A DNA stretch of 64,000 bases from Patescibacteria group bacterium (GCA_038065275.1 JBBTRH010000007.1:2873-66872), one strand, 5' to 3'; positions 2,732 through 58,440 are shown, counted from the stretch's first letter. Notes: generated by a model not told the origin, from the letters alone. Made by a program: numbers and translations.

Positions 2732-3553
2732 ATGTTCCTCCATACCTGGCACCCGCAACCATTGATCGCCGCCCTCGGCGGATTTTCCTTTCGCTGGTAC
2801 GGTTTGCTGTTGGCGCTGGCGGCGTTGGTCGGTTTCGGCCTGATTCAACGGATCGGCCGGCGCTACCGGCTCGACGTCAACCGCCTGTTCGACTTGGCGC
2901 TGATCACCCTCGTCGCCGGTTCCATCGGCGCCCGGATCTACCATGTCCTCAACGAATGGACGTACTACTGGGCTCGTCCGACGGAGATGTGGAAGGTCTG
3001 GAACGGCGGCTTGGCCCTACATGGCGGGTTAATCGTCGGCGCCGCGGCGCTGTTCATCATGGCCAGACGCTGGAAATGGAACGCTTGGTTGATCGCCGAC
3101 GTCATGGCTCCGGCGGTAGCCCTCGGCCAAGCTATCGGCCGCTGGGGCAACTACGCCAACCAGGAACTGTTCGGCCGGCCGACCTTGCTTCCTTGGGGCA
3201 TCCCGATCGATCCCCTCAACCGCCCGCCGGCCTACGTGACGCAGACGTATTTCCATCCCACCTTTCTCTACGAATCGCTTGGTCTGTTGGTCATCGCCGT
3301 TTTGCTGTGGCTGATGCACCGGCGTCGGTGGCGGGTGTCGGCTTCGTCACAGCCTCAACCCTACGGCGCTATTGCACTGGCCTATTTCGTCCTGTATTCG
3401 GTCCTGCGCATCAGCACCGAATCGCTTCGCCTCGACCGCACGCCCATCATCGGCGGCGTTCGTTTGCCCATTCTCGTCAGCGGATTGATAATCGTGGTCG
3501 CGCTGGTTATTCTCTTCATCCGCTACCGCCGCACACCTGCCAGTTCCGTTTGA
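2732..3553 (+). CDS. lgt: Prolipoprotein diacylglyceryl transferase
   Basis: Polytopic membrane protein with the Lgt signature GRWGNYANQELFG. Start taken at Met45 of ORF 2600..3553. Confidence 0.85.
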   Translation: MFLHTWHPQPLIAALGGFSFRWYGLLLALAALVGFGLIQRIGRRYRLDVNRLFDLALITLVAGSIGARIYHVLNEWTYYWARPTEMWKVWNGGLALHGGLIVGAAALFIMARRWKWNAWLIADVMAPAVALGQAIGRWGNYANQELFGRPTLLPWGIPIDPLNRPPAYVTQTYFHPTFLYESLGLLVIAVLLWLMHRRRWRVSASSQPQPYGAIALAYFVLYSVLRISTESLRLDRTPIIGGVRLPILVSGLIIVVALVILFIRYRRTPASSV

Positions 3554-3594
3554 CCCCCGTTAGAGGCTTCACTCATAAAACTTATCCGACACGC

Positions 3595-4857
3595 ATGTTG
3601 AACAATTCGAAAAATGCGGCCTCTAGCGGGGTTGATCCTCAATTGAAGAGGTTGCTGAACGCCGAACTCAAGCGTCAACGTGATGGTTTGACATTGATCG
3701 CTTCGGAGAACATTGTTTCGCCGGCGGTCCTGAAGGCGGTCGGCAGTGTCTTAACGAACAAGTACTCCGAAGGCTACCCCGGCAAACGTTATTACGGCGG
3801 CAATCAGTTCATCGACGAAATCGAAAGGCTCGCCATTGCTCGGGCGAAAAAACTTTTTGGCGCCGAACACGCTAACGTCCAGTCCCACGCCGGCGCGATC
3901 GCGAATATCGCCGTGTTTTTTACCTTCTTGAAACCTGGCGACACGATATTGTCGATGAGTCTGCGCGCCGGCGGCCACCTCACTCATGGTTACAAACTCA
4001 ATCTTTCCGGCCAGGTCTACGACGTGGTCCACTACGGCGTCAATGCCGACGGTTTCATCGACTACGATGAAGTCGAGCGCTTGGCGCTTGCCCGGAAACC
4101 AAAACTGATCATCTCCGGCGCCTCGGCCTACCCGCGACAGATCGACTTCAAGCGTTTCGGCGCCATCGCCAAGAAGGTCGGCGCCTATCACCTGGCTGAC
4201 GTGGCTCATGTGGCCGGTTTGATCGTGACCGGTTTACATCCTGATCCAATCCCGTACGCTGATGTCGTTACGACCACCACGCACAAAACATTACGCGGGC
4301 CGCGCGGTGCGATCATCCTCTGTAAAGCCGAGCATGCCGATCTGATCGATAAAGCCGTTATGCCCGGCATTCAGGGTGGTCCGCTTGATCACGTTATTGC
4401 CGGAAAAGCACAGGCTTTCGCCGAAGCGCTGACGCCGGCCTTCAAAAAATACCAACAGCAAGTCATTAAAAACGCGGCGCGAATGGCTGAGACGCTGGCC
4501 GGTCATGGCTTAGCCCTCGCCACCGGCGGCACGGATAACCATCTTATCTTGGCTGATGTCACGCCGATGAATCTCACCGGCGCACAAGCTGAGGTATTAC
4601 TCGAATCGGCGGGAATATACGTCAACAAGAACTTAATCCCGAACGACCCGCGAAAAGCTTTGGACCCCTCCGGCATCCGTCTCGGCACGCCGGCTATCAC
4701 CTCGCGTGGGCTCAAGGAAAAAGATGTCGAAAATTTAGCTCATCTGATATTACAACTGCTCCTAGCGCCCACGAATGCTGTTATCAAACGCCGCGTCGCG
4801 GCCGCTGTTCGAACACTGACCAAGCGTTTTCCACTCTACCCGGGTTTGAAAGCATGA
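3595..4857 (+). CDS. glyA: Serine hydroxymethyltransferase
   Basis: Met214 of ORF 2956..4857, reading MLNNSK..LIASENIVSPAVLKAVGSVLTNKYSEGYPGKRYYGG...TTTTHKTLRGPRG (PLP-lysine region). The N-terminal 213 aa of the tracked ORF are an out-of-context extension. Confidence 0.9.
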   Translation: MLNNSKNAASSGVDPQLKRLLNAELKRQRDGLTLIASENIVSPAVLKAVGSVLTNKYSEGYPGKRYYGGNQFIDEIERLAIARAKKLFGAEHANVQSHAGAIANIAVFFTFLKPGDTILSMSLRAGGHLTHGYKLNLSGQVYDVVHYGVNADGFIDYDEVERLALARKPKLIISGASAYPRQIDFKRFGAIAKKVGAYHLADVAHVAGLIVTGLHPDPIPYADVVTTTTHKTLRGPRGAIILCKAEHADLIDKAVMPGIQGGPLDHVIAGKAQAFAEALTPAFKKYQQQVIKNAARMAETLAGHGLALATGGTDNHLILADVTPMNLTGAQAEVLLESAGIYVNKNLIPNDPRKALDPSGIRLGTPAITSRGLKEKDVENLAHLILQLLLAPTNAVIKRRVAAAVRTLTKRFPLYPGLKA

Positions 4858-4884
4858 TCCCGTTTCGTTCAAATGGATTTCTAA

Positions 4885-4993
4885 TCCCGTTAGAAATGAA
4901 CGAAGATGAACTATTGGTAAAAGCGAGGTTGTATTTACTTCCGCTACATTTTTCAAAAATAACGTTTTATTCATTTCTAACGGGACTAACGGG
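4885..4993. repeat. CCCGTTAGA hairpin element, copy 1
   Basis: Left arm TCCCGTTAGAAATGAA (4885-4900) and right arm TTCATTTCTAACGGGA (4970-4985), followed by a second CTAACGGG that abuts the folD ATG. The spacer is AT-rich. Confidence 0.7.
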
Positions 4994-5797
4994 ATGAGCG
5001 CGATCAAGCTCGACGGCCGCCGCGCGGCTGATCGAATGTTGGTACAATTAAAGAAAAAAATTCGGCGCACGCGGGAACCGATCACGTTAGCCACGATTCT
5101 CGTCGGTTCGCGTTATGATTCATCCCTCTACGTCCGCCTCAAGCGCCGCGCGGCCACTCGCGTCGGGATTAAAACCGAAGCGCATCATCTTCCGGCAACG
5201 ACAAAACAAGCGTCCTTGACGCGCCTGATTCGCGCGCTCAACCACCGCAAAAACATCAGCGGCATTCTACTACAACTCCCTTTGCCACCGCGCCTCGATG
5301 CTGACGCGGCCATCCGCGTCATCGATCCCCGCAAAGATGTTGACGGTTTTCACCCGCGCAACGCCGTAGTTGTTCCCCCGCCGGTAGCCGCCGTCTTGCG
5401 TCTTATCAATCTCGGCCAACCGCCGCGAGGTTCGTTCGCGGCCATCGTCGCCCAGCCGTCAGTTTTTACCGCCCGACTGGCGACCGAACTTGCCCGCCAT
5501 GGTTTTGTTCCGGCTGTCGTTGAACCGCACCGTAATCTGAACCTGGTCACGACCAAAGCCGACATTGTCGTCACCGCGCTTGGTCAGGGCGCGCGCTTGA
5601 CGGCCCGCGACGTCAAGCGTGGCGCGATCATCGTCGATGTCGGAATACGTCGGCACGGTAAAAAAACCATCGGCGATGTTCATCCCTCAGCCTGGAAAAA
5701 AGCTAAGGCCATCAGTCCCGTACCCGGCGGAGTTGGGCCGTTGACGGTCTCCTGCGTCCTCGAAAATACTTATCAGCTGGCCGAACATCAGTCGTGA
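4994..5797 (+). CDS. folD: Bifunctional methylenetetrahydrofolate dehydrogenase/cyclohydrolase
   Basis: KDVDGFHP motif; follows glyA, giving a one-carbon metabolism pair. Confidence 0.9.
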   Translation: MSAIKLDGRRAADRMLVQLKKKIRRTREPITLATILVGSRYDSSLYVRLKRRAATRVGIKTEAHHLPATTKQASLTRLIRALNHRKNISGILLQLPLPPRLDADAAIRVIDPRKDVDGFHPRNAVVVPPPVAAVLRLINLGQPPRGSFAAIVAQPSVFTARLATELARHGFVPAVVEPHRNLNLVTTKADIVVTALGQGARLTARDVKRGAIIVDVGIRRHGKKTIGDVHPSAWKKAKAISPVPGGVGPLTVSCVLENTYQLAEHQS

Positions 5798-7212: not shown

Positions 7213-8292
7213 ATGTCATTTTCTGTTGGCATCGTTGGTCTGCCCAACGTCGGAAAATCATCGCTGTTTCAAGTGCTGACGAAAAAACAGGTCGACACTT
7301 CGAATTACCCCTTCGCCACCATTGATCCGAACGTCGGCGTCGTGGCCGTGCCGGACCCGCGGCTCGAAGTGTTGACAAAGATGGAAAAATCGGCCAAGAC
7401 GATCGCCACCGCCATCGAATTCGTCGACATCGCCGGCTTGGTCAAAGACGCGCATAAGGGCGAGGGTTTGGGCAATCAATTCCTGGCGAACATTCGCGAA
7501 GTCGATGCTATCACTGAAGTGGTGCGGGCTTTTGATGATCCGAATGTAATCCATGTCGCCGGCAAGATAGACCCCGCGTCTGACACGGCGACGATCGACA
7601 TCGAGCTGGCCATGGCCGACCTAAGCACCATCGCGAAAAGGCTTGACACGTTGACCAAACAAAAAAAGGCCGGATTGGACAAACAACAAACATCGGAACT
7701 GGCGTTGATCGAACGGGTCCACGCTCATCTTAGCGATGGAAAACCGGTTCGTGTTTTGCCTTTGACCGATGAAGAGCGCTCGGAACTGAAATCTCTCAAC
7801 TTGTTGACTATTAAACCGCTGATCTACATCCTCAACGTCAGTGAAAACCAAGTAGCCGCGTCCAGAGCGGAAACGTATGGCTTACCGCCGGAGCAAACTG
7901 TCGTCATCGCCGTGAAAGTCGAGCAGGAATTAGCCGACTTGAGTCCGGCTGATGCCGCCGCGTACCTCAAAGAACTCGGATTATCCGCTTCCGGCCTTGA
8001 CCGGCTGATCCAAACTGCGTACCGAACGCTCGGCCTGGTGACGTTCCTCACCACCGGCCCGGATGAGACACGGGCTTGGACAGTTCCGTCCGGCACGAAA
8101 GCGCCCCAAGCCGCCGCGGTTATCCACACTGATTTCGAACGGCATTTCATCCGCGCCGAAGTGGTAAGTTACCCTGATCTTGTCGCCGCTGGATCATGGG
8201 AGATGGCAAAAACGTCGGGGAAACTCAGAATCGAGGGAAAAACATATGTCATTCGGGATGGTGATGTCGTGTTTTTCCGAGTGAGTGTTTGA
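7213..8292 (+). CDS. ychF: Ribosome-binding ATPase YchF (Obg-like GTPase family)
   Basis: [20 protein letters not shown]1 motif; TGS domain at the C-terminus. Start at Met16 of ORF 7168..8292. Confidence 0.9.
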
Positions 8293-8300
8293 ACGGTTGA

Positions 8301-8403
8301 CCCAGCACCACATTGGCTAAAACAAAAGACTTGCCGATGATTCATTGATTACTACAACGTGACTTCTCAGTAAATCAACAAGTTAACCAATGTGGTGTCT
8401 GGG
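8301..8403. repeat. CCCAGCACCACA inverted-repeat element, copy 1
   Basis: CCCAGCACCACATTGG (8301-8316) and CCAATGTGGTGTCTGGG (8387-8403) flank a 70-bp AT-rich spacer. It starts 9 bp after the ychF stop. Confidence 0.65.
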
Positions 8404-8408
8404 TTAAT

Positions 8409-8508
8409 CCCGTTAGAAGCGGCTAAGCAAAAATTATTGATGAAGTGTTATTATGTGGCCACAAACAGAGTACACTATTTTGGTGCAGGTTTCCCCGCTT
8501 CTAATGGG
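8409..8508. repeat. CCCGTTAGA hairpin element, copy 2
   Basis: CCCGTTAGAAGCGG (8409-8422) and CCGCTTCTAATGGG (8495-8508), followed by TTGACA. Confidence 0.7.
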
Positions 8509-8625
8509 GTTGACAAGCCGTTGCCGTTTGTCGACGGAAGTCGTAGACTTGTACATAGTAGCCCTTTCCATTCCCAGTGATAAACACTCACGGGAGATTT
8601 GCGGCTCACACTTCAAGGAGGACGC

Positions 8626-8926: not shown

Positions 8927-10138
8927 TCACGTCAATGTCCACTTTCGGATTTGCCGTAACACCCGCGCCCCATCTCGCGCGTAGATAAGCATGTTTGGAT
9001 GAGGAATGTTTAAAATGGTAGCCGACGCATCGGACAGTAGCGGTTCTTGCCTGAATCCTAAGTTTGCGACCGCCTGTTCGATGTCAACGCGAATGTTCCC
9101 GTCGGGAAAAACATACTCCGGCCAGATCATCACCACCCGCGCGCCGGGCCGTAGCTTCGTCGCCCACTGTTCAAAACATCGAAGATACAGCGTTTGTACT
9201 TCTTTAGCCTGCTGACGCAACCACGGTCGCGGTTCATGTCCGCGCAACGGTTTACCCAAATACGGTTCGGTCACGATCACGTCGGCGGCCACATTGATAT
9301 GTCGCGCGTTGCGTGAGGTAATTTCCACCGTAGCCTGAACTTTTGGAAATTCTTTAAAGAGCCAACGGAGATTCTCCTGGCTCTCTCGCACCGCTCGCGA
9401 GTCCGCATCTGTCCCGTAGATTTCTTTCACGCCCATCAACACCGCTTCCTGTAAAATCGTACCCGCACCGCAGAATGGATCGAGCAGGATTGTTTGCTCA
9501 TTGACATTGGCAATATTCAACATCATCTGCGCCAGTTTTGGTGGCACCATGCCGCTCTTGGCGTTCGCGGCCGGGCGGCCGAAGTCGCGTCGGCCATAGG
9601 CTTCGTAATCCTGCACGGCTGTCGTCACGCCGACAATTACCTCCGATGCTGTTTTTACGAATACCAATTCTTTCCCCTTCTCCAACAATCCGTTTTTCTT
9701 CACGGTCACCGCCGACAGTTGCGGTTCGCGAGACGTGACGTACCGCACCGGTCGCCCAGTATGAACTAATTCTTTTTTCAAGCGAAGCCCCTGGCGATTC
9801 CCGGCCGCGCGTTCAGAATTCGACGCGCCGTAGACGCTTAGGCCGAATTCAATGCGGCCGCGGTCAGGAAAGAGTTTCTGCGCCCAGTCTCCGGACAACT
9901 CCTCGATCAGCGTCGTCACCAGATTCGTGGTGATCGGCCAGCGCTCAAGTACGGTCACCTGCTTGACGCTTCCGCCGAGGCGGTCAAGCGCCCGATCGGG
10001 CAATCCGCCCTCATGACGAACAAGCGCGACACTTGTTGACGCCACCGTTACCGCGGCCGACCATGCGGTCGTCATGGCCTCCAATTCCGCCACCGACAGT
10101 TCCGGCTCACGACCCAGGATAAACAGGGTTTCCGACAT
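8927..10138 (-). CDS. THUMP-domain class I SAM-dependent RNA methyltransferase
   Basis: SAM-binding motif LDPFCGAGTIL and catalytic TEPYLG (NPPY-like). THUMP-like N-terminus. Confidence 0.75.
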   Translation of the reverse strand: MSETLFILGREPELSVAELEAMTTAWSAAVTVASTSVALVRHEGGLPDRALDRLGGSVKQVTVLERWPITTNLVTTLIEELSGDWAQKLFPDRGRIEFGLSVYGASNSERAAGNRQGLRLKKELVHTGRPVRYVTSREPQLSAVTVKKNGLLEKGKELVFVKTASEVIVGVTTAVQDYEAYGRRDFGRPAANAKSGMVPPKLAQMMLNIANVNEQTILLDPFCGAGTILQEAVLMGVKEIYGTDADSRAVRESQENLRWLFKEFPKVQATVEITSRNARHINVAADVIVTEPYLGKPLRGHEPRPWLRQQAKEVQTLYLRCFEQWATKLRPGARVVMIWPEYVFPDGNIRVDIEQAVANLGFRQEPLLSDASATILNIPHPNMLIYARDGARVLRQIRKWTLT

Positions 10139-14003: not shown

Positions 14004-14702
14004 CTAACTATTCGTTGTGCTCGCCGGTGCCACAGCCGATTCGACAAGAATATTCCTGATTACCGTCCGCGGTCGGCTGTGTTTCTTAATGGCCGAAATT
14101 TTCAGCGCATTGAGTCCGATATGAAGGTCGATCGATTCATTAAACCGACCGTCACCGGAAGTCTGGACGTCCTGGTCGTTGATGGTCACCGTGGCGTTCG
14201 GGTCGGTCGTACCGCTGATGATCAAAGTCACGGCCGAGGTTGAAATATCCGTCGCCGGTTGCGTGACGGTCAACCGCGGGGGCAGGAAATTCCGCACAGC
14301 TTGGGTGCCGAGGTAGGTGACGGCTATGACCACGATGATGCCGGAGACGATGAAGCGAAGATGGCGCCGCACCCAGGGAAACTCCGTCGATGCTCGCGGG
14401 GTGAGGAGCGGCCGCGCGGTCGGTCCGGTCTTGGCCACCACGGCATATTCTTGCTCGAAGATCCCGACCGCCGTTTCCACGTCCGTCTCCAGCGCTTCCG
14501 CATACCGGCGGACGAACTGCCGAGCATAGACCAGCCCGGGCAAGTCACGATAACGCGATTCCTCGACGGCCGTGAGGTATTTCGAGGTGACGTGAATCCG
14601 CCGTCCGACGTCTTCAACTGACCATCCGGTTTCAGTCCGCAGGGCCCGTAGGCGGTCACCGAGCGTCGCCCCGGCCGTGAGCGGCCGCTTGGTGAACGTC
14701 AT
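14004..14702 (-). CDS. RodZ-like helix-turn-helix membrane protein
   Basis: N-terminal XRE-type HTH (LGDRLRALRTETGWSVEDVGRRIHVTSKYLTAVE), a single TM segment, then an extracytoplasmic domain. Confidence 0.6.
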   Translation of the reverse strand: MTFTKRPLTAGATLGDRLRALRTETGWSVEDVGRRIHVTSKYLTAVEESRYRDLPGLVYARQFVRRYAEALETDVETAVGIFEQEYAVVAKTGPTARPLLTPRASTEFPWVRRHLRFIVSGIIVVIAVTYLGTQAVRNFLPPRLTVTQPATDISTSAVTLIISGTTDPNATVTINDQDVQTSGDGRFNESIDLHIGLNALKISAIKKHSRPRTVIRNILVESAVAPASTTNS

Positions 14703-14775
14703 CCCGTTAGAGCGTTATATTGAAGCATTATTATTCTCATTACGGTCTGATCCGACGATGGCCGCTCTAACGGGA
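14703..14775. repeat. CCCGTTAGA hairpin element, copy 3
   Basis: CCCGTTAGAGCG (14703-14714) and CGCTCTAACGGGA (14763-14775). The element fills the whole 73-bp gap between the ftsK stop and the ATG of the RodZ-like gene. Confidence 0.75.
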
Positions 14776-17049
14776 TCATGCGCGGCCGGCCTCGTCCTCC
14801 CCGCCCCCGACCGGCGTCCGTTCATCGCTGGCTGGACTGTCATCAACGGGCAGGTCTCGCGGGTCGACCGGGATTCCATCCGCCGTGGCCGATACCTGAC
14901 CGGCATAGATTTCCCTAGGCTTGGCGCCGGAGCCGGGGCCGATGAATCCTTGTTGTTCAAGCAGATCCATGATGCGCGCCGCCCGGGCGTAACCGAGGCG
15001 AAGGCGGCGCTGGAGGAGAGTGGTCGAGGCTTTGCCGCTCTGGAGGATGACTTCTCTGGCTTGGGTCATCAGTTCGTCATCCCCGAGATCTTCCATGCTC
15101 CCGCTGATCATCGGCGCGGCTTTTTCGACGATGTCGTTCATATAATCCGGTCGGCCGCGTTGCTTAAGGAACTGGGTCACGCGTTCCACCTCTTTTTCCG
15201 AAACATAGGCGCCCTGCAAACGCTTCGGTTTGCTCAGCTCGGCCGAGACGAAGAGCATGTCTCCTTTGCCTAGCAATTTTTCGGCGCCAGAGGTGTCGAG
15301 AATCGTCCGCGAATCGATCTGCGAGGCGACGCTGAAGGCAATGCGGGCGGTGACGTTGGCCTTGATTAGGCCGGTGATAACATCGACTGACGGCCGTTGC
15401 GTGGCCAAGACGAGGTGGATGCCGACGGCTCGGGCCATTTGCGCCAACCGCACGATCGCGCCCTCGACTTCCTTGGCCGCGACCGACATCAAGTCAGCTA
15501 ACTCATCGATCACCACCACGATATAAGGCAGGTCGTCATTAATGTCTTTACGATAGGAGGCGATGTTGCGCTTGCCGGCGTTCTGGAATAACTGAAACCG
15601 GCGGTCCATTTCGCTGACCACCCAGCGCAGGGCGTTGATGGTCTTGATCGTGTCGGTAATGACCGGTGTTAAGAGGTGCGGGATGTCATTATACAACGAC
15701 AACTCGACTCGTTTTGGATCGACCAAGATGAGCTTCAAATCATCCGGCGAGTTGCTGTAGAGCAAACTCAGAATCAAACCGTTGATTTGCACCGATTTTC
15801 CCGAACCGGTCGCGCCGGCGATCAGCAGGTGCGGCAACGGATCGAGGTTGGCTACCCACGGTTGCCCGGACACGTCTTTGCCCAGTGAGAACGTCAAGTT
15901 CGACTTCCGGTTCTTAAAGTTGTCGGCTGTCAGGATATCGCGCAGATTGACCAGCGCCACGGCCTGATTCGGGACTTCAATGCCGACTAGGGACTTGCCG
16001 GGAATCGGCGCTTCAATGCGAATCGGGTGGGCGGCCAGGGCCAGGGCCAAGTCGTTGTATAGCGACGCGATCTGGGCTAAGCGTACTCCTTCCGACGGTT
16101 TGAGCGTGAACTGGGTGACCGTCGGGCCGACATTGACTTCGCCCATTTCGACCGCAATGCCGAAAGTTTCCAGCGTTTTGCGGATTTTTTCTTTATTCGC
16201 TTCAATGTTGCCGCTGGTCGGCTTGCCGGTCGATAGGTCCAGCAGGTCAAGCGGAATAGTGATCTGCCGCTTCTCTTTTTTCGCCGGTGCTGGCGGCCGG
16301 GGAGCGTCGGCTTCCTCCTCGTCCTCATCGCCGGCGCGATCATCGTCTGCCGGCGCATCAGCGATCGCTTGCTTCGTAAAACCCGGCGCGGCGTTTTCCG
16401 TTGCTTGCTCTTCATGGCCACCGGCATCCAGCGTTAATTTCCGGCGCCACCAGCGGTGACGGACCCAGGCCAAGAATTTCGCCGGCAGGTTCCCGCGATC
16501 GGCTAAGCCGCGCAGGGTCGTGTTGAACATGATCAACAGAGCGATAATAAACAATCCGGCCATGATCAGTCCGGCGGCCACCGCCCCGAACCCTTGGCGG
16601 AGCGGATAGTCCAATAACACGCCCAAGTATCCCCCGCCCTCACCGCCGATCGCCCGGCTGACCGACTCCGCCGCCGGCAGGAACAGTTGCAGGATGCCGG
16701 AGACGCTGATTACGGCTAAAACGAATCCGGCCCACTGGGTGGCGTTGATATGCAAACGCTCGGGAAACAGGAGCAGTGTCCCGACGACCGCTAGGTACAC
16801 CCAAATCACGTAGCGTTGCCAGCCCACCAATGTCCCCAACCCGCCGCTGATGGCGCTACCCAGACCGCTGGCGCCGTTGAAAACGCTCAACGCGCCAACC
16901 GCCGCCAGGATGAACAGCGCGACGATCGTGACGGCGCGGCGAGTTTCAGGAGTTAGCCTAGACCGCGGCGGTTCAGCCGAAACTGGGCGTCCGGATTGTT
17001 GATCGCCGTTGGCACGAGCGCGTCGCGCTGATCGTTTCGACTGAGCCAT
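14776..17049 (-). CDS. ftsK: DNA translocase FtsK
   Basis: N-terminal TM segments; FtsK/SpoIIIE motor with Walker A GATGSGKS; winged-helix C-terminus. Confidence 0.9.
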   Translation of the reverse strand: MAQSKRSARRARANGDQQSGRPVSAEPPRSRLTPETRRAVTIVALFILAAVGALSVFNGASGLGSAISGGLGTLVGWQRYVIWVYLAVVGTLLLFPERLHINATQWAGFVLAVISVSGILQLFLPAAESVSRAIGGEGGGYLGVLLDYPLRQGFGAVAAGLIMAGLFIIALLIMFNTTLRGLADRGNLPAKFLAWVRHRWWRRKLTLDAGGHEEQATENAAPGFTKQAIADAPADDDRAGDEDEEEADAPRPPAPAKKEKRQITIPLDLLDLSTGKPTSGNIEANKEKIRKTLETFGIAVEMGEVNVGPTVTQFTLKPSEGVRLAQIASLYNDLALALAAHPIRIEAPIPGKSLVGIEVPNQAVALVNLRDILTADNFKNRKSNLTFSLGKDVSGQPWVANLDPLPHLLIAGATGSGKSVQINGLILSLLYSNSPDDLKLILVDPKRVELSLYNDIPHLLTPVITDTIKTINALRWVVSEMDRRFQLFQNAGKRNIASYRKDINDDLPYIVVVIDELADLMSVAAKEVEGAIVRLAQMARAVGIHLVLATQRPSVDVITGLIKANVTARIAFSVASQIDSRTILDTSGAEKLLGKGDMLFVSAELSKPKRLQGAYVSEKEVERVTQFLKQRGRPDYMNDIVEKAAPMISGSMEDLGDDELMTQAREVILQSGKASTTLLQRRLRLGYARAARIMDLLEQQGFIGPGSGAKPREIYAGQVSATADGIPVDPRDLPVDDSPASDERTPVGGGEDEAGRA

Positions 17050-17130
17050 ATCCCGTTAGAAGCTATCTGAAAAAAAAGTGAATTGTTTGTTCATACGTGA
17101 TAAGCTTGTTATTACGGCTTCCAACGGGAC
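17050..17130. repeat. CCCGTTAGA hairpin element, copy 4
   Basis: CCCGTTAGAAGC (17052-17063) and GCTTCCAACGGG (17117-17128). It starts 1 bp upstream of the ftsK ATG. Confidence 0.7.
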
Positions 17131-17682
17131 ATGGAAGCGCTTAGGATAGCATAAAAATGGCCTTGCGGCAATCTGATTTGTAATCCTGACGCCCAGGCGA
17201 GGATAGAGTACGCTCGATACTATCCGGTGGCTGAGGAGAAGCTATGCCTCAACACGCCATCTTCACTACATACAGCACACGCTGGGGAGCATGCGCTGTG
17301 GGAAAAGGGGAGAGCTTGCGGAGCAAGAAAACTACTACCTCTTCAAACACCGTCGGCGCCCCCGCCGGCGGTCGCCGAAGAAGAATAAGTGTTACTCACT
17401 GTCAGCCCAAATTTTCCCGGGTCGTCCAATAGATTTAGCTTTCTAGGATCTCAAATTGTCCCTCTCTCAAAGCAAAAATGGGTAAATCCGCTTTATGCTT
17501 CTTCAATTTAGCATCTGCCTTACCCAATCAATGTTCGGCGCATTAATATTCACCCAAACTGTGTCGACCCGGCGTGAATGGGGTCGGCACAGTTTCTGTC
17601 TTTCGTACCCTCACCTGCCCCACTCCTCACCAGACCGCAACCATCCTCACCTATCCCGCCCTCGTGCGGAATGATGCGGTCT

Positions 17683-20600
17683 TTACGTCGCGGCGTTTTG
17701 GGCCGCTAGTTCATTCGCGGCGTTTTGGCGTTGATGAAGTTCGAATCCGGTCCCGGCCGGAATCGGTTTACCGATGATCACATTCTCCTTCAACCCGCGA
17801 AGCGGATCGATCTTACCCGAAACGGCGGCGTCGATTAAGACGCGGGCGGTTTCCTGGAATGAGGCGGCGGACAGCCAGCTTTCGGTGGTCAACGATGATT
17901 TCGTCACGCCGAGCAGGAGCGGTTCAATCTCCGGCGGCGACTTTTTTAGCCTGGCGATCAGCTCGTCGGCGACCGCCCGATCGACGATTTCCCCGACTAC
18001 TAGTTCAGTCCCGCCAGCCGACTTAACGTAGGCGCGGGAGAACATCTGGCGGACGATGATCTCGATGTGCTTGTCATTCAGGTATTGGCCCTGCGACGAA
18101 TAGATGAACTGGATTTCCTTGATGATGTATTTCTGCACCGCCTGACGGCCCTGGAGAACGTAGAGTTCCTGGAGATTAATCGATCCGTCGGTCAAGACGG
18201 CGCCGACATCCACCAGGTCGCCGTCGTTGACCCGCAAGATGGTATTGCCGGCCACGTCGAAGTCGGTCGTCGCTTGATGATCAAACTCGACGTAGGCCGC
18301 GGTAGGAGCGATCTTGACGATGCCGGCGCGTTTGGCCGTCACCGTCTTCTCGCCGATCGTCATCAGTAGCGCGCCGGCACTAACCCGAGCGCCGTCCTTG
18401 ACCTGGAGAACGGCTTTCACCTTGGCCCGCGCCTTCGGCAGGTCATAGCGGTCGTGGCCTGGCGCTTGATGGGCGAGCTTGATCACCCGGTGGTCGCCGC
18501 TGGAATCGATCTGTACTTGACCGGCCACGGTCGCTAACAGGGCCGGCGATTTCACCGGTCGGGCCTCGAACAACTCCTCGACCCGCGGCAAACCTTGAGT
18601 AATGTCATCACCACCGGCCACGCCGCCGGTATGGAACGTGCGCATGGTCAGCTGGGTGCCCGGTTCGCCGATTGATTGGGCAGCAATGATGCCAACGGCG
18701 GTGCCAATCTGCACCAGATCATTCCGGGCCAGGTCGTATCCGTAACAACGCTGGCAAACCCCCCGCACCGCTTTGCAGGACAGGACGGAGCGGATGGTGG
18801 CGGAGGTAAGGCGGGCCTTTTTTAGTTTGGCGACGATTTTCGGCGTCAACAGTTCGCCGTTCTTCACTAGCGTCTTCCCCTTCCCGTCGACCAGATCGGC
18901 CGCCAGCACCCGGCCGCTGATGCGGTGGATGATGTCGTAGCCCATCTCTTCGCTCTCGGCGGTGGTGATGGTGAACCCCTCAGTGTCGCCGCAGTCTTCC
19001 AGGTTGATCACCACATCCTGGGACACATCGACCAGCCGTCGCGTCAGATACCCGGCGTTAGCCGTCTTCAGCGCGGTGTCCGTTAGCCCTTTCCGCGCGC
19101 CGTGCGTGGAAATGAAGTATTCGAGCACATCGAACCCTTCCTTGAAACTGGCCTTGACCGGCAACTCGATAGTCTTCCCCGACGGGTTGCCGACCAACCC
19201 TTTCATGCCCATCATCTGGGTGGTTTGAGCCCACGATCCGCGCGCGCCGGAATTAATCATCATGTACACCGGGCCGAGCTTATTCAGCGTTTCTTTCGAA
19301 GCCGCTTGAATGTCTTCCTTAGCCGTCGTCCAGGTATTGATCACCCGGACATAGCGCTCGGTATCAGTCAGCAAACCGGCTTCGTAGGCTTCTTGAATTT
19401 CCCGGATGCGTTGTTCGGCGCGGGACAGAATGTCGGCTTTCTGGGCGGGGACTTCCAGGTCGCTCATGCCCCAGGAGATGCCGGACTGCGTGACGTATTT
19501 GAATCCGAAGTTCTTGACTGCGTCGAGCAGTTCAACCGTCCGCTCCTGGCCGAGCTCGACGAATGATCGTGAAACCAGCGCCGAGAGGGATTTCTTATCC
19601 ATGTTCTCGTTGATGAATCCGAGTTCCTTCGGCAAGATGCGGTTGAACAGAACGCGGCCGACCGTGGTGGCCATGCGTTCGCCCTCGATCCGGATAGTGA
19701 CCCGGGTCTGGAGGCCGATCCGGCCGGATTCGTAGGCTAGAATAGCCTCATCGGGGTGGGCAAAAGTGTAGTCTTTCTGGTCACCGGATTGAGTCATGTA
19801 GTAGCAACCCAAAACAATGTCCATGTTCGGCGTCATGACCGGCGTGCCGGTCGCCGGCTTGAGGAGGTTTTTCGTCGACATCATCAGGTTGGCCGCTTCC
19901 CACTTGGCCTGTTCGGTCAACGGCACGTGGACAGCCATCTGGTCGCCGTCGAAATCGGCATTAAAGGCACTGCAGACCAGCGGGTGGATCTGGATCGCCT
20001 TGCCTTCGATCAAAATGGGTTTGAAGGCTTGGATACCCAGGCGATGGAGGGTTGGGGCGCGGTTGAGGAGGACGGTCGCGCCCTTCGTCACCCCTTCCAA
20101 GATGTCCCAGACTTCGGGATGTCCGGCCTCAATGTACCGACCGGCGGAGCGGACGTTATGGACGTATTCGCGCTTGATCAACTCGGAGATGACGAACGGC
20201 CGAAAAAGTTCAAGGGCCATCCGTTTCGGCAGGCCGCACTGGTCGAGTCTGAGATACGGACCGATGACAATCACCGAACGGCCGGAGTAGTCGACCCGCT
20301 TGCCCAGGAGATTCTGACGGAACCGGCCTTGTTTGCCTTTCAGCATATCGGCGATTGAACGGAGCATCCGCTTTTGGCCGGTTGAGGCGGTGACCGTCTT
20401 GCCGTGACGGGCGCCGTTGTCGATCAAGGCGTCAACGGCTTCCTGTAGCATCCGTTTTTCGTTGCGGACGATGACTTCCGGAGCGTTAAGCTCAAGTAAT
20501 CGCTTCAGACGGTTATTCCGGTTAATGACCCGGCGGTACAGATCATTCAAGTCAGAGGTGGCGAACCGGCCGCCGTCGAGCTGGACCATCGGTCGGAGAT

Positions 20601-25282: not shown

Positions 25283-25394
25283 GTTAGCCCCGTTAGAGGT
25301 GATAGCGAAAACAAGGTGGAGATTAGTTGTCGTTATCCACAGCAATGTGGCGTATTAAAAAAAGTAATTACATTCGCCTCTAACGGGGTTAGCC
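25283..25394. repeat. CCCGTTAGA hairpin element, copy 5
   Basis: GTTAGCCCCGTTAGAGG (25283-25299) and CCTCTAACGGGGTTAGCC (25377-25394). A candidate promoter TTGTCA-N17-TAATGT (25256-25284) abuts its left arm. Confidence 0.7.
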
Positions 25395-34500: not shown

Positions 34501-34622
34501 CGTAGTCTGTACATTGTTTTCCGCGCCAGGTGGTGCCCTCTAGAACCTCTAATCGATCGCCGCACGAAGCCCCTGTCCTCGAGTGGAATCGACGCCTCGC
34601 AGTGATCCGTCCCGCCCCAGCC

Positions 34623-34697
34623 TGGTGCCCCCCAGAGGAATCGAACCTCTATCGCGAGATCCGGAATCTCGTGTCCTATCCGTTGAACGAGGGAGGC
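34623..34697 (-). tRNA. tRNA-Arg(CCG)
   Basis: The minus strand folds as a cloverleaf. Acceptor GCCUCCC/GGGGGGC (one G-U). D-arm GUUC/GGAC. Anticodon stem CGAGA/UCUCG with loop UUCCGGA, giving anticodon CCG. T-arm AGAGG-UUCGAUU-CCUCU. Discriminator A and an encoded CCA. 75 nt. Confidence 0.85.
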
Positions 34698-34843
34698 CCA
34701 GGCTGGGGCGGGATATCCGTTGAACTACGAGGGCACGGGTCTTGTGCGGGATGTGCGTTGCCGGGCGAAGCCGGGTCCGGCTCCGCCGGAAACGAGGGAG
34801 GCATCATCTAGTGCGGAACGGAAACAGCTTATCAGAAGTTTTC

Positions 34844-46140: not shown

Positions 46141-46166
46141 AATGATTGAAAAGTATGTGACATAAA

Positions 46167-46271
46167 CCCAGCACCACAATGGTTGATTCGTTGTTATTTC
46201 TGAAAAAAGTGCAGTCTTTACTCACGTATACGTATTTTTTTTAGTTCGCATTATACCATTGTGGTGCTGGG
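46167..46271. repeat. CCCAGCACCACA inverted-repeat element, copy 2
   Basis: CCCAGCACCACAATGGT (46167-46183) and ACCATTGTGGTGCTGGG (46255-46271), a perfect 17-bp IR around a 71-bp AT-rich spacer. It lies in the divergent region between the DGR target gene and uvrB. Confidence 0.7.
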
Positions 46272-46418
46272 TAAACGTTGCAACTTACACCATAATCGTT
46301 CTTTTGTCAATCTAGATTTTTTTATTCTGTTCGACTGCTATTATAGCAGAGATTGGGAGAAAAATCAAGTTTTTTCTTCAAGACCTATATGCCATAGACA
46401 TGGTAGGCTACCCGCATC

Positions 46419-48563: not shown

Positions 48564-48683
48564 TTGTCCGACGAAGCCTTCTTGTCCACCGAAGCTTCAG
48601 CGTAGGTGGAGGCGTAGTCGGGCTTGTCCGACGAAGCCTTCTTGTCCACCGAAGCTTCAGCGTAGGTGGAGGCGTAGTCGGGC
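48564..48683. repeat. Perfect tandem duplication of a 60-bp unit
   Basis: TTGTCCGACGAAGCCTTCTTGTCCACCGAAGCTTCAGCGTAGGTGGAGGCGTAGTCGGGC occurs twice. Each unit contains the hairpin CCACC-N14-GGTGG. The array sits between a candidate promoter (TTGCGC-N16-TAAGAT, 48511-48538) and the M16 peptidase start. Confidence 0.85.
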
Positions 48684-52309: not shown

Positions 52310-53301
52310 CGTTCAATCAGAATCAGATCGAGCAACGTCTCTGCGTCGAGCGGCGACGTTTTAAGATCGTGGTCAATCTCAAGCAGGCGATGGTGGAGAT
52401 CGCGTAGTTCAGCGGGCCGGAAATGCGATGTCTGGGCTAACGCTTTTTGGACGACGTACGGGTGCAGGCTAAGTTCGGCCGCGATCGCCGCCGGGCTGAG
52501 GCCGCGTTCCTTGGTCCGCTGCACCTGCCACAAATTACGGACATGGCTGGCCAGCGTGGCGATCAGGGCGAACTCGTTCGATCCGGCGGACAATTCGCGG
52601 TGCAGTAACTCAAGCGCCCGCGCGGTCTGACGCTGGCCAAGCGCGTCGGTCAAGGCAAAGATGTCGCTGGCGTATTCGCTCTTGACCATGGCGTCGACAT
52701 CGGCCACGGTCACGACGCGGCCGGCGGCGTAGGCCAACAGCTTCTCCAGTTCCGTCGCCATCCGCCAGGAATCCCGATTGCACAGCGCCACCAGGCGCTG
52801 GGCCGCGGCGGGATCGAGCAGGCCGGCTTGTGCTTGAGCTTCCCGGCCCAGCCAGGCCACGGCTTGCGCCGCCGTCAGCTGGGCGAATGTTTCACGTTTT
52901 TCCTTCGGCAGGACCAGTTGGCCGGGCGCTGTTCGTCCGGTAGTTTTGGCGCGTGACCCCGCCGCCGGTCGCCTGGCGGAACGCTCCGGCTCTGCCAGCA
53001 GGTCACGAATAACAACCACTACGTCGCTGTCCTTCGCCGCGACCGGTTCGAGTAGCGACGACAAGCGGTCTGGTTTGAGCGGCCCGTCAGGCGCATAGCG
53101 GTCAAGGGCGACAAATCGTTTGGCCGCAAAAAAACCCGTCGTCGTGACGGCGGTCCGCAGTTCTTCCAGGCTCGTCGTGGCGCCGTCGAGCGTCACGGTA
53201 TTGAACCCGCGCGGATCGTGCTTGGCTACGAATGCCGACCGCAGTTCGGCCAGTCGTTGGGCTGAACGGTAGGTGTCGGCGCCGGTCAGGTGGATGGTCA
53301 T
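52306..53301 (-). CDS. holA: DNA polymerase III subunit delta
   Basis: Start at Met22 (MTIHLTGADTYRSAQRLAEL…), typical HolA N-terminus. The tracked N-terminal extension reads through hairpin element copy 6. Confidence 0.75.
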   Translation of the reverse strand: MTIHLTGADTYRSAQRLAELRSAFVAKHDPRGFNTVTLDGATTSLEELRTAVTTTGFFAAKRFVALDRYAPDGPLKPDRLSSLLEPVAAKDSDVVVVIRDLLAEPERSARRPAAGSRAKTTGRTAPGQLVLPKEKRETFAQLTAAQAVAWLGREAQAQAGLLDPAAAQRLVALCNRDSWRMATELEKLLAYAAGRVVTVADVDAMVKSEYASDIFALTDALGQRQTARALELLHRELSAGSNEFALIATLASHVRNLWQVQRTKERGLSPAAIAAELSLHPYVVQKALAQTSHFRPAELRDLHHRLLEIDHDLKTSPLDAETLLDLILIER

Positions 53302-53402
53302 CCCGTTAGAGGTGATGGAAATAAGAACATATCGAACTGCTTCTGGTGGATGCTTGGAGTGCACCTAATGGAAATAACATAGTATTCGTCACCTCTAACG
53401 AG
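53302..53402. repeat. CCCGTTAGA hairpin element, copy 6
   Basis: CCCGTTAGAGGTGA (53302-53315) and TCACCTCTAACGAG (53389-53402). It begins at the base after the holA ATG. Confidence 0.7.
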
Positions 53403-53521
53403 ATCATGGCGTTGACCTCATCAGAGACAGTTTCCGTCCAACCGGACAATAAGACGACTATGCGTAACGAGGAAACAATGGTTGGGTTTGAACATGATCA
53501 TGCCCACGCTAATGGAGTTGG

Positions 53522-53617
53522 CCCCGTTAGAGGCGAAAGTTGTTTGCCTCAGTTAGCTGGTGCGATTCCGGACGCCGGAAAGATCAACCGTTCTCTTGAT
53601 ATCAGCGTCTAACGGGG
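53522..53617. repeat. CCCGTTAGA hairpin element, copy 7
   Basis: CCCCGTTAGAGGCG (53522-53535) and CGTCTAACGGGG (53606-53617), immediately followed by TTGACA. Confidence 0.7.
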
Positions 53618-53646
53618 TTGACAATCGGTCTTCCTTCTGCTAGCAT
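53618..53646 (+). promoter_or_regulatory. Sigma70-type promoter TTGACA-N17-TAGCAT
   Basis: The -35 hexamer directly abuts the right arm of hairpin copy 7. The gene starts about 55 nt downstream. Confidence 0.5.
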
Positions 53647-53704: not shown

Positions 53705-53956
53705 ATGATCCATCTGTCGCGGTATCATCGCTGGCGGTTGCGCCAGTTGGGCCTGACGGCGCGATCCGGCTCACCCGACAAGTGTTCCGGGGCTGATCTC
53801 GACCGGGTACTTCCGCGGCATTTCCCGCTCTCTCTAACCAGTGAGACCAGTGATCCGCCGGCTGGTGCCGATGCGCCGCACACGAATCAGGAACTGAACG
53901 TGATCATCAGCGGCTCGGCCGGAGGAATTCTCCCACCGCGTCTGCGCCAGAAGTAG
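53705..53956 (+). CDS. Hypothetical protein (83 aa)
   Basis: Met30 of the tracked ORF, preceded by AAGGAGGA. Low-complexity sequence, so it may be non-functional. Confidence 0.35.
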   Translation: MIHLSRYHRWRLRQLGLTARSGSPDKCSGADLDRVLPRHFPLSLTSETSDPPAGADAPHTNQELNVIISGSAGGILPPRLRQK

Positions 53957-58256: not shown

Positions 58257-58351
58257 ATTCTACCACGATGGGAGTACGAGTTGTAGGATTTAGGATTTAA
58301 GACTTAAGAATTAAGCTTTTGCGCGAAACGTTTTCCAACCTTCCGCTTAAA

Positions 58352-58440
58352 TCATAAAATCCTACAACTTACACCTTACAACCTAAACCCTACAACCTAT
58401 ATCCTACAAACCACAACTTACAATTTTAATCCTACAACCT
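58352..58440. repeat. Tandem ~14-bp repeat array (TAAATCCTACAACC-like)
   Basis: About 7 degenerate units of YYTACAAC spaced 13-15 bp, immediately 3' of the four-helix-bundle gene. An inverted partial copy (GTTGTAGGATTTAGGATTTAAG…) lies at about 58280-58320. Confidence 0.7.

Follow-up and report, generated by a model that had tools for sequence, protein, structure and literature searches.

The 64,000-nucleotide stretch of a Patescibacteria group bacterium genome considered here (GCA_038065275.1, JBBTRH010000007.1:2873-66872, hereafter the window) contains eight copies of one inverted-repeat element, each 72-101 bp in total, which are probably copies of a non-autonomous foldback transposable element of the MITE type (miniature inverted-repeat transposable elements). 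A first-pass annotation of this DNA had drawn attention to hairpins at translation starts and had offered two readings of them, as translation-control leaders or as insertion-site-specific mobile hairpins, and it is the latter that agrees with the inverted repeats, the 4-bp duplications, the empty sites in relatives and an occurrence that is both patchy and cross-phylum. The evidence points to a DNA-level, strand-symmetric mobile element, and the element is a new family within a known kind, since it has everything that defines a MITE structurally save for a known parent transposase. Its form is 5'-Y-CCCGTTAGA-NNN ... NNN-TCTAACGGG-R-3', that is, a 13-bp inverted repeat enclosing an AT-rich, unconserved interior. 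Where 1.6 would be expected, the window contains 15 occurrences of CTAACGGG, a count reached in none of 100 shuffles, and 13 of them pair up into the eight elements, the other two (at 677 and 26299) being the number expected by chance.

A scan of public genomes, one genome per species and 596 Gb in all, with the pattern CCCGTTAGAR-N52-82-YTCTAACGGG yielded at least 119 loci. About 67 chance matches to this pattern are estimated for 596 Gb of DNA, and most of the matches are taken to be genuine because the stem, duplication and position features described below lie outside the pattern used for scanning. Some 160 copies, from the matches listed among these loci, were available for analysis. The stem is modally 13 bp and sharply bounded. 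Positions 0-8, the invariant 9-bp core, pair in no fewer than 99% of copies. A Watson-Crick pair is formed at position -1 in 90% (C-G 78, T-A 50) and at positions 9, 10 and 11 in 92%, 88% and 81%, each of these three admitting more than one pair type, after which pairing falls to 36% at position 12. The terminal pair and the three inner pairs thus covary. The structure is a long-range 13-bp inverted repeat with no compact hairpin, and the interiors, mostly 45-80 nt, are AT-rich and unrelated except for scattered GC-rich motifs of the (G/A)CGGG type (C-GGG). The copies fall into size classes of 76-78, 92-93 and 99-100 bp, and there are also mini-hairpins of 27-28 nt, consisting of two 13-bp arms and a 3-4 nt loop (L051 6015-6041, L042 3725-3752, L200 2558-2585, L207 3963-3989 and L058 1263-1290), from which it follows that the interior is dispensable. 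In some genomes the interior is shared among copies (L014/L107, L006/L010/L057 and L023/L044/L073), and the near-identical copies within one genome (L014, L107; L006/L010/L057) show amplification.

The flanks of the element are those of an insertion. A 4-bp direct repeat at positions -5..-2 and +2..+5 is perfect in 74 of 142 elements, where shuffled pairings average 8.1 and reach 16 at most, and when widths of 4 to 8 nt were tested identity rose above background only at a width of 6 nt, with -5..-2 opposite +2..+5. Both flanks have the consensus RTNNAY, the outer positions agreeing in class only (R or Y), and the base next to one arm is complementary to the base next to the other. Flanks such as ATGAAC|...|GTGAAA show that these arm-adjacent bases travel with the element and that TGAA alone is duplicated. 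When each duplication is pooled with its reverse complement, TAAA (with TTTA, 23), TGAA (with TTCA, 18), TCCA (with TGGA, 8) and TCAA (with TTGA, 8) are the most frequent. Sites of the form ATGA have a register shorter by one base, ATGA-T[...]-ATGA, giving a 3-bp duplication. Copies ending in T...A are found in excess (p = 0.0025) with TGAA and TCCA, the duplications that occur at ATG starts, and a preference for ATG over GTG would lead to just that.

These regularities suggest how the element could come to lie against start codons. Insertion into R|TNNA|Y would duplicate 4 bp of the target (3 bp at ATGA), and the terminal purine of the element together with the duplicated TG would rebuild an RTG start flush with the right arm, for example at A|TGAA, while a copy of the old start or stop would be left at the far side of the element. 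Given the terminal purine, and a duplication that in many cases opens with TG, TAA or TGA, insertion at a start, a stop, an ATGA stop/start overlap or a TTGACA -35 box would in each case rebuild that signal at the arm, and adjacency to ATG becomes a product of the insertion geometry itself. Selection would then purge insertions inside coding sequence, so that the surviving copies pile up at gene boundaries. At the level of sequence, the flush ends are shown to be what codon regeneration, combined with selection against in-gene insertions, would produce.

The positions of copies outside the window bear this out. A lack of bias towards start codons in copies elsewhere had been named in the first-pass annotation as what would speak against its proposal, but among long open reading frames (ORFs) reading outward from an element the first possible start lies exactly at +1 in 47 of 132, no other distance accounting for more than four. 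For incoming ORFs the stop begins at -5 or -4 in 21 of 102 and is the arm's own TAG in a further class of 5/102, and in 32 of 44 start-flush copies there is a second start codon in the far-side duplication. When empty sites were rebuilt for the 73 copies with perfect duplications and compared with a uniform choice among the same 4-mers in the same locus, start codons had been hit 21 times against 2.0 expected, stop codons 8 against 1.4, other non-coding sites 29 against 11.9 and sites inside an ORF only 15 against 57.8. Relative to non-coding 4-mer sites alone, start codons are about two-fold over-represented. Most of the boundary pattern can be put down to the loss of in-gene insertions together with a target motif to which ATGAA, TGAA and TAAA conform. 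Arms also occur at -35 boxes, at the 3' ends of genes and in intergenic DNA without genes.

The eight copies in the window, and the two genes on either side of element C, are as follows.

Element H: core 3556-3630 (75 bp), with ends 3555..3631; right arm TCTAGCGGG with one mismatch; TTGA duplicated at 3550-3553 and 3632-3635, the left copy being followed by an additional C (3554).
Element A: core 4886-4984 (99 bp), with ends 4885..4985; T...A termini; perfect CTAA duplication at 4881-4884 and 4986-4989.
Element B: core 8409-8508 (100 bp), with ends 8408..8509; right arm TCTAATGGG; flanks TTAA at 8404-8407 and TTGA at 8510-8513, the latter forming TTGACA at 8510-8515.
Element C: core 14703-14774 (72 bp), with ends 14702..14775; terminal T...A pair; minus-strand reading ...GCGC-ATGA-T[CCCGTTAGAGCGGCC...GGCCGCTCTAACGGG]-ATGA-CGTT.
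Element D: core 17052-17128 (77 bp), with ends 17051..17129; arms CCCGTTAGAAGC / GCTTCCAACGGG, in which a single pair is G-T; flanks CATG / TATG; position 2 nt upstream of the ftsK ATG.
Element E: core 25289-25387 (99 bp), with ends 25288..25388; C...G termini; flanked on either side by GTTAGC, with TTAG perfectly duplicated.
Element G: core 53302-53402 (101 bp), with ends 53301..53403; one arm CTCGTTAGA; minus-strand reading GCC-ATGA-T[...]-ATGA-CC, flush with the holA ATG (53301-53299).
Element F: core 53523-53616 (94 bp), with ends 53522..53617; C...G termini; flanks TTGG and TTGA.
ftsK: 14776..17049, minus strand; Pfam FtsK_SpoIIIE, alpha, gamma and 4TM domains.
RodZ-like HTH_25 gene: 14004..14702, minus strand; identified by Pfam, with homologues named RodZ by the Joint Genome Institute (JGI) and an N-terminus MTF... 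conserved in relatives.

The neighbours of the elements are, by Pfam, lgt, glyA, folD, ychF, ftsK, the RodZ-like HTH_25 gene, rpoB and holA, and their start codons are backed by N-terminal conservation in relatives. The junctions quoted in the first-pass annotation are present at folD (CTAACGGGACTAACGGG-ATG, with the ATG at 4994), at the RodZ-like gene (CGCTCTAACGGG-ATG, ATG 14702-14700, minus strand) and at holA (CACCTCTAACGGG-ATG, ATG 53301-53299, minus strand). The ftsK junction (GCTTCTAACGGGAT-ATG at 17049-17047, minus strand) is likewise there, but the ATG lies 2 nt from the GGG and not at the distance of 0-1 bp that had been given. At folD the arm end is itself repeated, the 8 nt CTAACGGG recurring at 4986-4993 and abutting the ATG. 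What had been taken for a half-site after lgt is in fact the complete element H; the lgt stop TGA (3551-3553) lies inside the left TTGA copy and the right end abuts the frame of glyA (serine hydroxymethyltransferase, SHMT) at 3631. The start of glyA is ambiguous after the insertion (window 3595-3645), there being an in-frame ATG at 3595 inside element H and a TTG at 3643, 12 nt past the element, and in the reconstructed empty site no in-frame start is found upstream of TTG 3643. The TTGACA hexamers said to be fused to right arms were found at 8510-8515 and 53618-53623, and these apparent fusions are insertions at the TTGA of a -35 box; beyond element F the hexamer is followed by 17 nt and TAGCAT, then by AAGGAGG and an ATG at 53706. 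Element E lies in the divergent intergenic region between rpoB and a TPR gene, away from any start codon.

At the junction between ftsK and the RodZ-like gene both genes are on the minus strand, so that the insertion is intra-operonic. The gap from the ftsK stop (14778-14776) to the RodZ-like ATG was correctly described as filled by one element, and consists of the 72-bp element C plus one base. Relatives were retrieved by way of FtsK and by way of the RodZ-like protein, with ftsK/rodZ synteny kept, and five of them (L120, L212, L214, L215 and L218) have an intact ATGA overlap of the ftsK stop and the rodZ start, e.g. ggcATGAcctttg, where the window reads gcgcATGAT[72 bp]ATGACGTTC. The comparison shows that the 73-bp gap arose by insertion into such an overlap of stop and start, ATGA. 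An orthologous insertion is found at the same ATGA in L213 (9926-10000), with arms identical to those of element C (CCCGTTAGAGCGGCC / GCGCTCTAACGGG), and L213 also has a counterpart of element D before ftsK, at 7527-7600. Because L213 has both, insertion of elements C and D predates the split of the two lineages, whose FtsK proteins are 76% identical. Different elements occupy the same ATGA in L217 (6729-6827, 99 bp, other arms) and in L216 (~9766-10000, ~235 bp, arms AGACGG), so this site has been struck repeatedly and looks like an insertion hot spot. ftsK starts bear elements in unrelated lineages of the candidate phyla radiation (CPR), and in a Kaiserbacteria genome there are two tandem elements upstream of ftsK (L079 434-510 and ~533-650), the second lying after a duplicated ATGAAT.

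By record title the matches listed comprise 67 loci from Patescibacteria/CPR, 15 of Deltaproteobacteria type, 13 from Planctomycetota, 11 unclassified, 5 labelled 'Gammaproteobacteria', 4 from Nitrospirota, 3 from Omnitrophota and 1 from KSB1. Several copies per contig occur in genomes other than that of the window, no element copy was found in 80 more distant relatives (593 kb), and occurrence among related genomes is patchy. Several copies are also carried by a 30-kb viral contig, IMGVR_UViG_3300038429_000794 (L200, L207 and L208), which encodes a Mu transposase, an AAA/TniB-like protein, a capsid protein and Mu F and is a Mu-like phage; it shares sequence with a Smithellaceae contig (L042) and is a possible vehicle for spread between hosts. 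Identical 13-bp ends in several phyla, together with the Mu-like phage, point to horizontal spread. In the metagenome-assembled genome (MAG) DX4.bin27 there are ~320-bp inverted repeats (L010 2046-2369 and 4832-5155), each with one element, around a gene for a probable secreted protein of 686 aa, and the ~320-bp unit is also present on other contigs of the same genome (L006 and L057).

If an insertion separates a gene from its original initiation signals it must be asked how the displaced gene is translated. Ribosomes may start at the duplicated upstream start, with its original Shine-Dalgarno sequence, leaderless 5' end or upstream-stop overlap, and may then read through the element as a short ORF, either continuing in frame into the gene or stopping at the UAA of the right arm or at the UGA of an R-UGA that overlaps the regenerated start, and a stop at either UAA or UGA would permit reinitiation. 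The right arm does offer a stop beside the new start in two of three frames, as UAA inside UCUAACGGG 4 nt before the start or as the UGA of R-UGA, and in the third frame reading runs on in frame into the gene. Two such ORFs, translated here from the sequence and presumed to be used, are found in the window.

26-codon ORF (MIPLERPSSDQTVMRIIMLQYNALTG*): 14699..14779, minus strand; from the ATG overlapping the ftsK stop, across element C, to a TGA overlapping the RodZ-like ATG.
33-codon ORF: 53306..53407, minus strand; from the duplicated ATG through element G to the UAA in the right arm, 4 nt before the holA ATG.

A GAGG (53407-53405) lies 8 nt upstream of the duplicated ATG of element G. The read-through model does not cover every case, and the upstream ORF at ftsK ends after 6 codons. 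There is no enrichment of Shine-Dalgarno sequences upstream of duplicated starts (4/27), and a leaderless-type TANNNT box is found 4-9 nt upstream of the duplicated start in 9 of 27, compared with 24 of 242 control ends (p = 0.002). A -10-like box (TGnTATCCT/TATAGT) lies just upstream of the left ATG copy before ftsK and is kept in both the window and L213. A sigma-70 promoter scan of 14600-17700 returned no sites, and there is accordingly no evidence for an outward promoter on elements C or D.

A number of observations fit less comfortably with the MITE-like reading and weigh against it. A search of ~1.6 Mb of fetched DNA revealed neither an autonomous copy nor a transposase having these ends, and the interior sequence is not common to the eight window copies, which is unusual for a recently amplified MITE. 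Covariation of the stem is not needed for ordinary transposase binding and hints that base pairing itself would matter. When the window is compared with L213, the arms of element C agree at 30/30 positions, whereas its interior is only ~57% identical, which suggests constraint on the arms after insertion. In 14 of 32 copies the ORF that begins at the duplicated start crosses the element without meeting a stop, compared with 13 of 64 in other frames (p = 0.03), and against the 33% seen at unrelated ends the difference is not significant, so that the read-through model receives weak support; a stronger result in the first test (p = 7e-5) had been inflated by the arm's own TAG. The candidates considered for a parent or mobiliser were all set aside. 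Arm pairs 130-5000 bp apart, with or without matching duplications, proved to be coincidences or else small elements in nested or tandem arrangement, the 'solo' arms turned out to belong either to mini-hairpins of 27-28 nt or to copies that had degenerated, the DX4.bin27 composite (L010) was a 320-bp inverted duplication around the secreted-protein gene, and the Mu-like phage was a carrier and not an obvious mobiliser, the known properties of Mu-type transposases not fitting.

The other suggestion of the first-pass annotation was in essence a cis-acting translation-control leader, in which an RNA stem sequesters the region before the AUG and is bound by a CsrA/RsmA-like or other regulator. Several copies do end at a start codon without a Shine-Dalgarno sequence between arm and AUG, the predicted RNA stems, whose z-scores range from -2.2 to -4.8, are closed immediately at the AUG, and the arms outconserve the interiors between the window and L213, but the presence of the same arms at -35 boxes, at the 3' ends of genes and in DNA without genes, the target-site duplications, the absence of the element from the ftsK/rodZ junction in five relatives and the identical ends in unrelated phyla and on a phage contig all count against it. 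In addition, mismatches on the sense strand comprise 10 G-U and 9 A-C with no excess of G-U, the GGGA lies inside the 13-bp stem and outside any loop, and Rfam gave only tRNA and noise, both in a gathering-threshold search of the whole window and in an E-value search of 3400-5200. The leader proposal is largely refuted and must be regarded as highly improbable. A recombination substrate moved by a tyrosine or HUH-type recombinase that reads the folded 13-bp stem, as in attC sites and REPINs, is a better-founded idea, though still an improbable one. When the ends are joined, TCTAACGGG-RTNNAY-CCCGTTAGA would give two 9-bp inverted arms around a 6-bp spacer, a classic core site, and the four covarying stem positions, the sharp end of the stem at 13 bp, the dispensable interior, the equivalence of the two strands and the repeated insertion of different elements at one ATGA would all be accommodated. 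Against this, targets have RTNNAY in common only and lack arm-like flanks, the 4-bp duplication and the terminal bases borne by the element fit staggered cleavage, the variable bases of the arms show no guide-like association with target 4-mers (p = 0.39), attC has its arms in the opposite order and extrahelical bases are absent here, and there is no recombinase gene nearby in the window.

There is also the question of whether some copies have since become useful to the host and are now selected, the stem keeping stop and start, or 5' end and start, together, or the arms binding a protein. The arms and interior of element C, set beside 76% identity in FtsK, are in keeping with this, as are the ORFs across elements C and G that end at a UGA overlapping the next start or at an arm UAA 4 nt before it, and the TANNNT boxes at duplicated starts; however, the arms of element D are only 21/24 identical between the window and L213 and have decayed in both lineages (wobble and mismatch), the enrichment of open frames is weak, and relatives express the same genes without the element. 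Such a role is on balance unlikely, if less so than a recombinase substrate, and arm conservation and covariation do leave room for selection on pairing, whether at mobilisation or through downstream expression. A more ambitious proposal, which we regard as doubtful in about equal degree, combines these ideas in a cross-phylum minimal foldback family that is defined by its 13-bp stem, is moved by an enzyme needing paired ends (piggyBac/IS1380-like or a structure-specific recombinase), targets stop/start boundaries and leaderless 5' ends, and is then kept by the host once the stem has become indispensable for translation of an essential gene; were it true, this would be a mobile element that persists by joining the path of the ribosome.

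Returning to the MITE-like reading, the element can be compared with several known systems. Like the bacterial MITEs, e.g. Correia/CREE of Neisseria and Chunjie of Geobacter, it is small, non-coding and multi-copy, has terminal inverted repeats, short target-site duplications and AT-rich targets, would form a hairpin when transcribed, and lies in or adjoining transcription units, being tolerated inside operons. Chunjie is found in or next to transcription units and is tolerated within operons, and at 178-235 bp it is larger than, and distinct from, the present element (PMC10969869). Here only 13 bp per end are conserved with interiors unrelated even within one genome, the ends cross several phyla, and insertions lie flush with start and stop codons by virtue of the duplication and the terminal purine; in addition the ends and the TNNA duplication differ from those of Correia and Chunjie. 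Correia elements have 26-bp inverted repeats and a TA duplication. The piggyBac transposons duplicate TTAA, and the IS1380/piggyBac families in general have a 4-5 bp (TTAA-like) duplication and ends starting with CC(C). Set beside these properties, the 4-bp T...A duplication, the CCC...GGG ends and the TAGAAA-like stretch near the tip form a resemblance that should be treated as a lead only; the present element differs in that a further covarying base (Y/R) separates CCC from the duplication, its target is TNNA and not strictly TTAA, and no transposase of any family was found here.

The attC sites of integrons are similar in their short conserved ends, variable interior, size classes, complementarity maintained by covariation, cross-phylum occurrence and frequent position just before the start of the next gene, and the GTTAGA/TCTAAC core resembles GTTRRRY/RYYYAAC. 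Identity with attC was rejected since the core motifs run the other way round (GTT...AAC, as against the AAC...GTT of attC, 5'-RYYYAAC ... GTTRRRY-3'), the 13-bp stem is perfect and without extrahelical bases, a 4-bp duplication is present, and the neighbours are housekeeping genes with no cassette array beside an integrase. The repetitive extragenic palindromes (REP) and REPINs associated with RAYT transposases are likewise hairpin-forming, extragenic and multi-copy with apparent selection on pairing; they were set aside on account of the absence of a GTAG motif, the presence of a duplication and a single long-range stem in place of two REP palindromes. An origin from IS200/IS605 (PATE) is contradicted by the duplication and by the lack of a guide relation between target and arm (p = 0.39), and a CsrA/RsmA leader by the GGGA in the stem, the symmetry of the two strands and the arms at 3' ends and in intergenic DNA. 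Hairpin-bridged split ribosome-binding sites and AUGA termination-reinitiation offer a possible route for the displaced starts, the base of the stem joining the old signal to the new start, and here this would be a consequence of the insertion, for which statistical support is weak.

The genomes of Patescibacteria are small and tightly packed, and to our knowledge mobile DNA in them has been little described; a search of the literature turned up no account of the present element. In this genome the element separates the starts of essential genes (ftsK, holA, folD and the rodZ-like gene) from their original initiation signals, with unusually tidy consequences for the gene boundaries of compact genomes. 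Gene callers and start-site predictors will be misled by it; the longest-ORF listing of the window runs both holA and glyA into an element. Dozens of genes with a 70-100 nt hairpin between the old and the new start constitute a set of natural experiments, and with stops in two frames no more than 4 nt from the new start, reinitiation or hairpin bridging becomes directly testable. The covarying stem may mean that mobilisation reads structure rather than sequence.

A second foldback family is present in the window at 46166-46272 and 8300-8403, with arms C-CCAGCACCACA(A/T)TGG... and the same geometry as the main element, that is, C...G termini, a 4-bp flank of TAAA or TTGA/TTAA and a length of ~105 bp. 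The copy at 8300-8403 is in tandem with element B, and both seem to have been inserted at the same TTGA of a TTGACA box; the family is absent from all fetched loci. Elsewhere in the window, short repeats of the CCTACAA / TTGTAGG type occur densely and in both orientations between two minus-strand genes (58280-58440), forming inverted pairs of up to 41 nt. A tRNA-Arg(CCG) gene (34623-34697) lies within a 23-nt inverted repeat, TCCCGCCCCAGCCTGG... / ...CCAGGCTGGGGCGGGA (34610-34713), that reaches past the ends of the tRNA, and an inverted-repeat scan also revealed two copies of a 60-nt unit at 48568-48681, each with an internal palindrome (CCGACGAAGCCTTCTTGTCCACCGAAGCTTC...).

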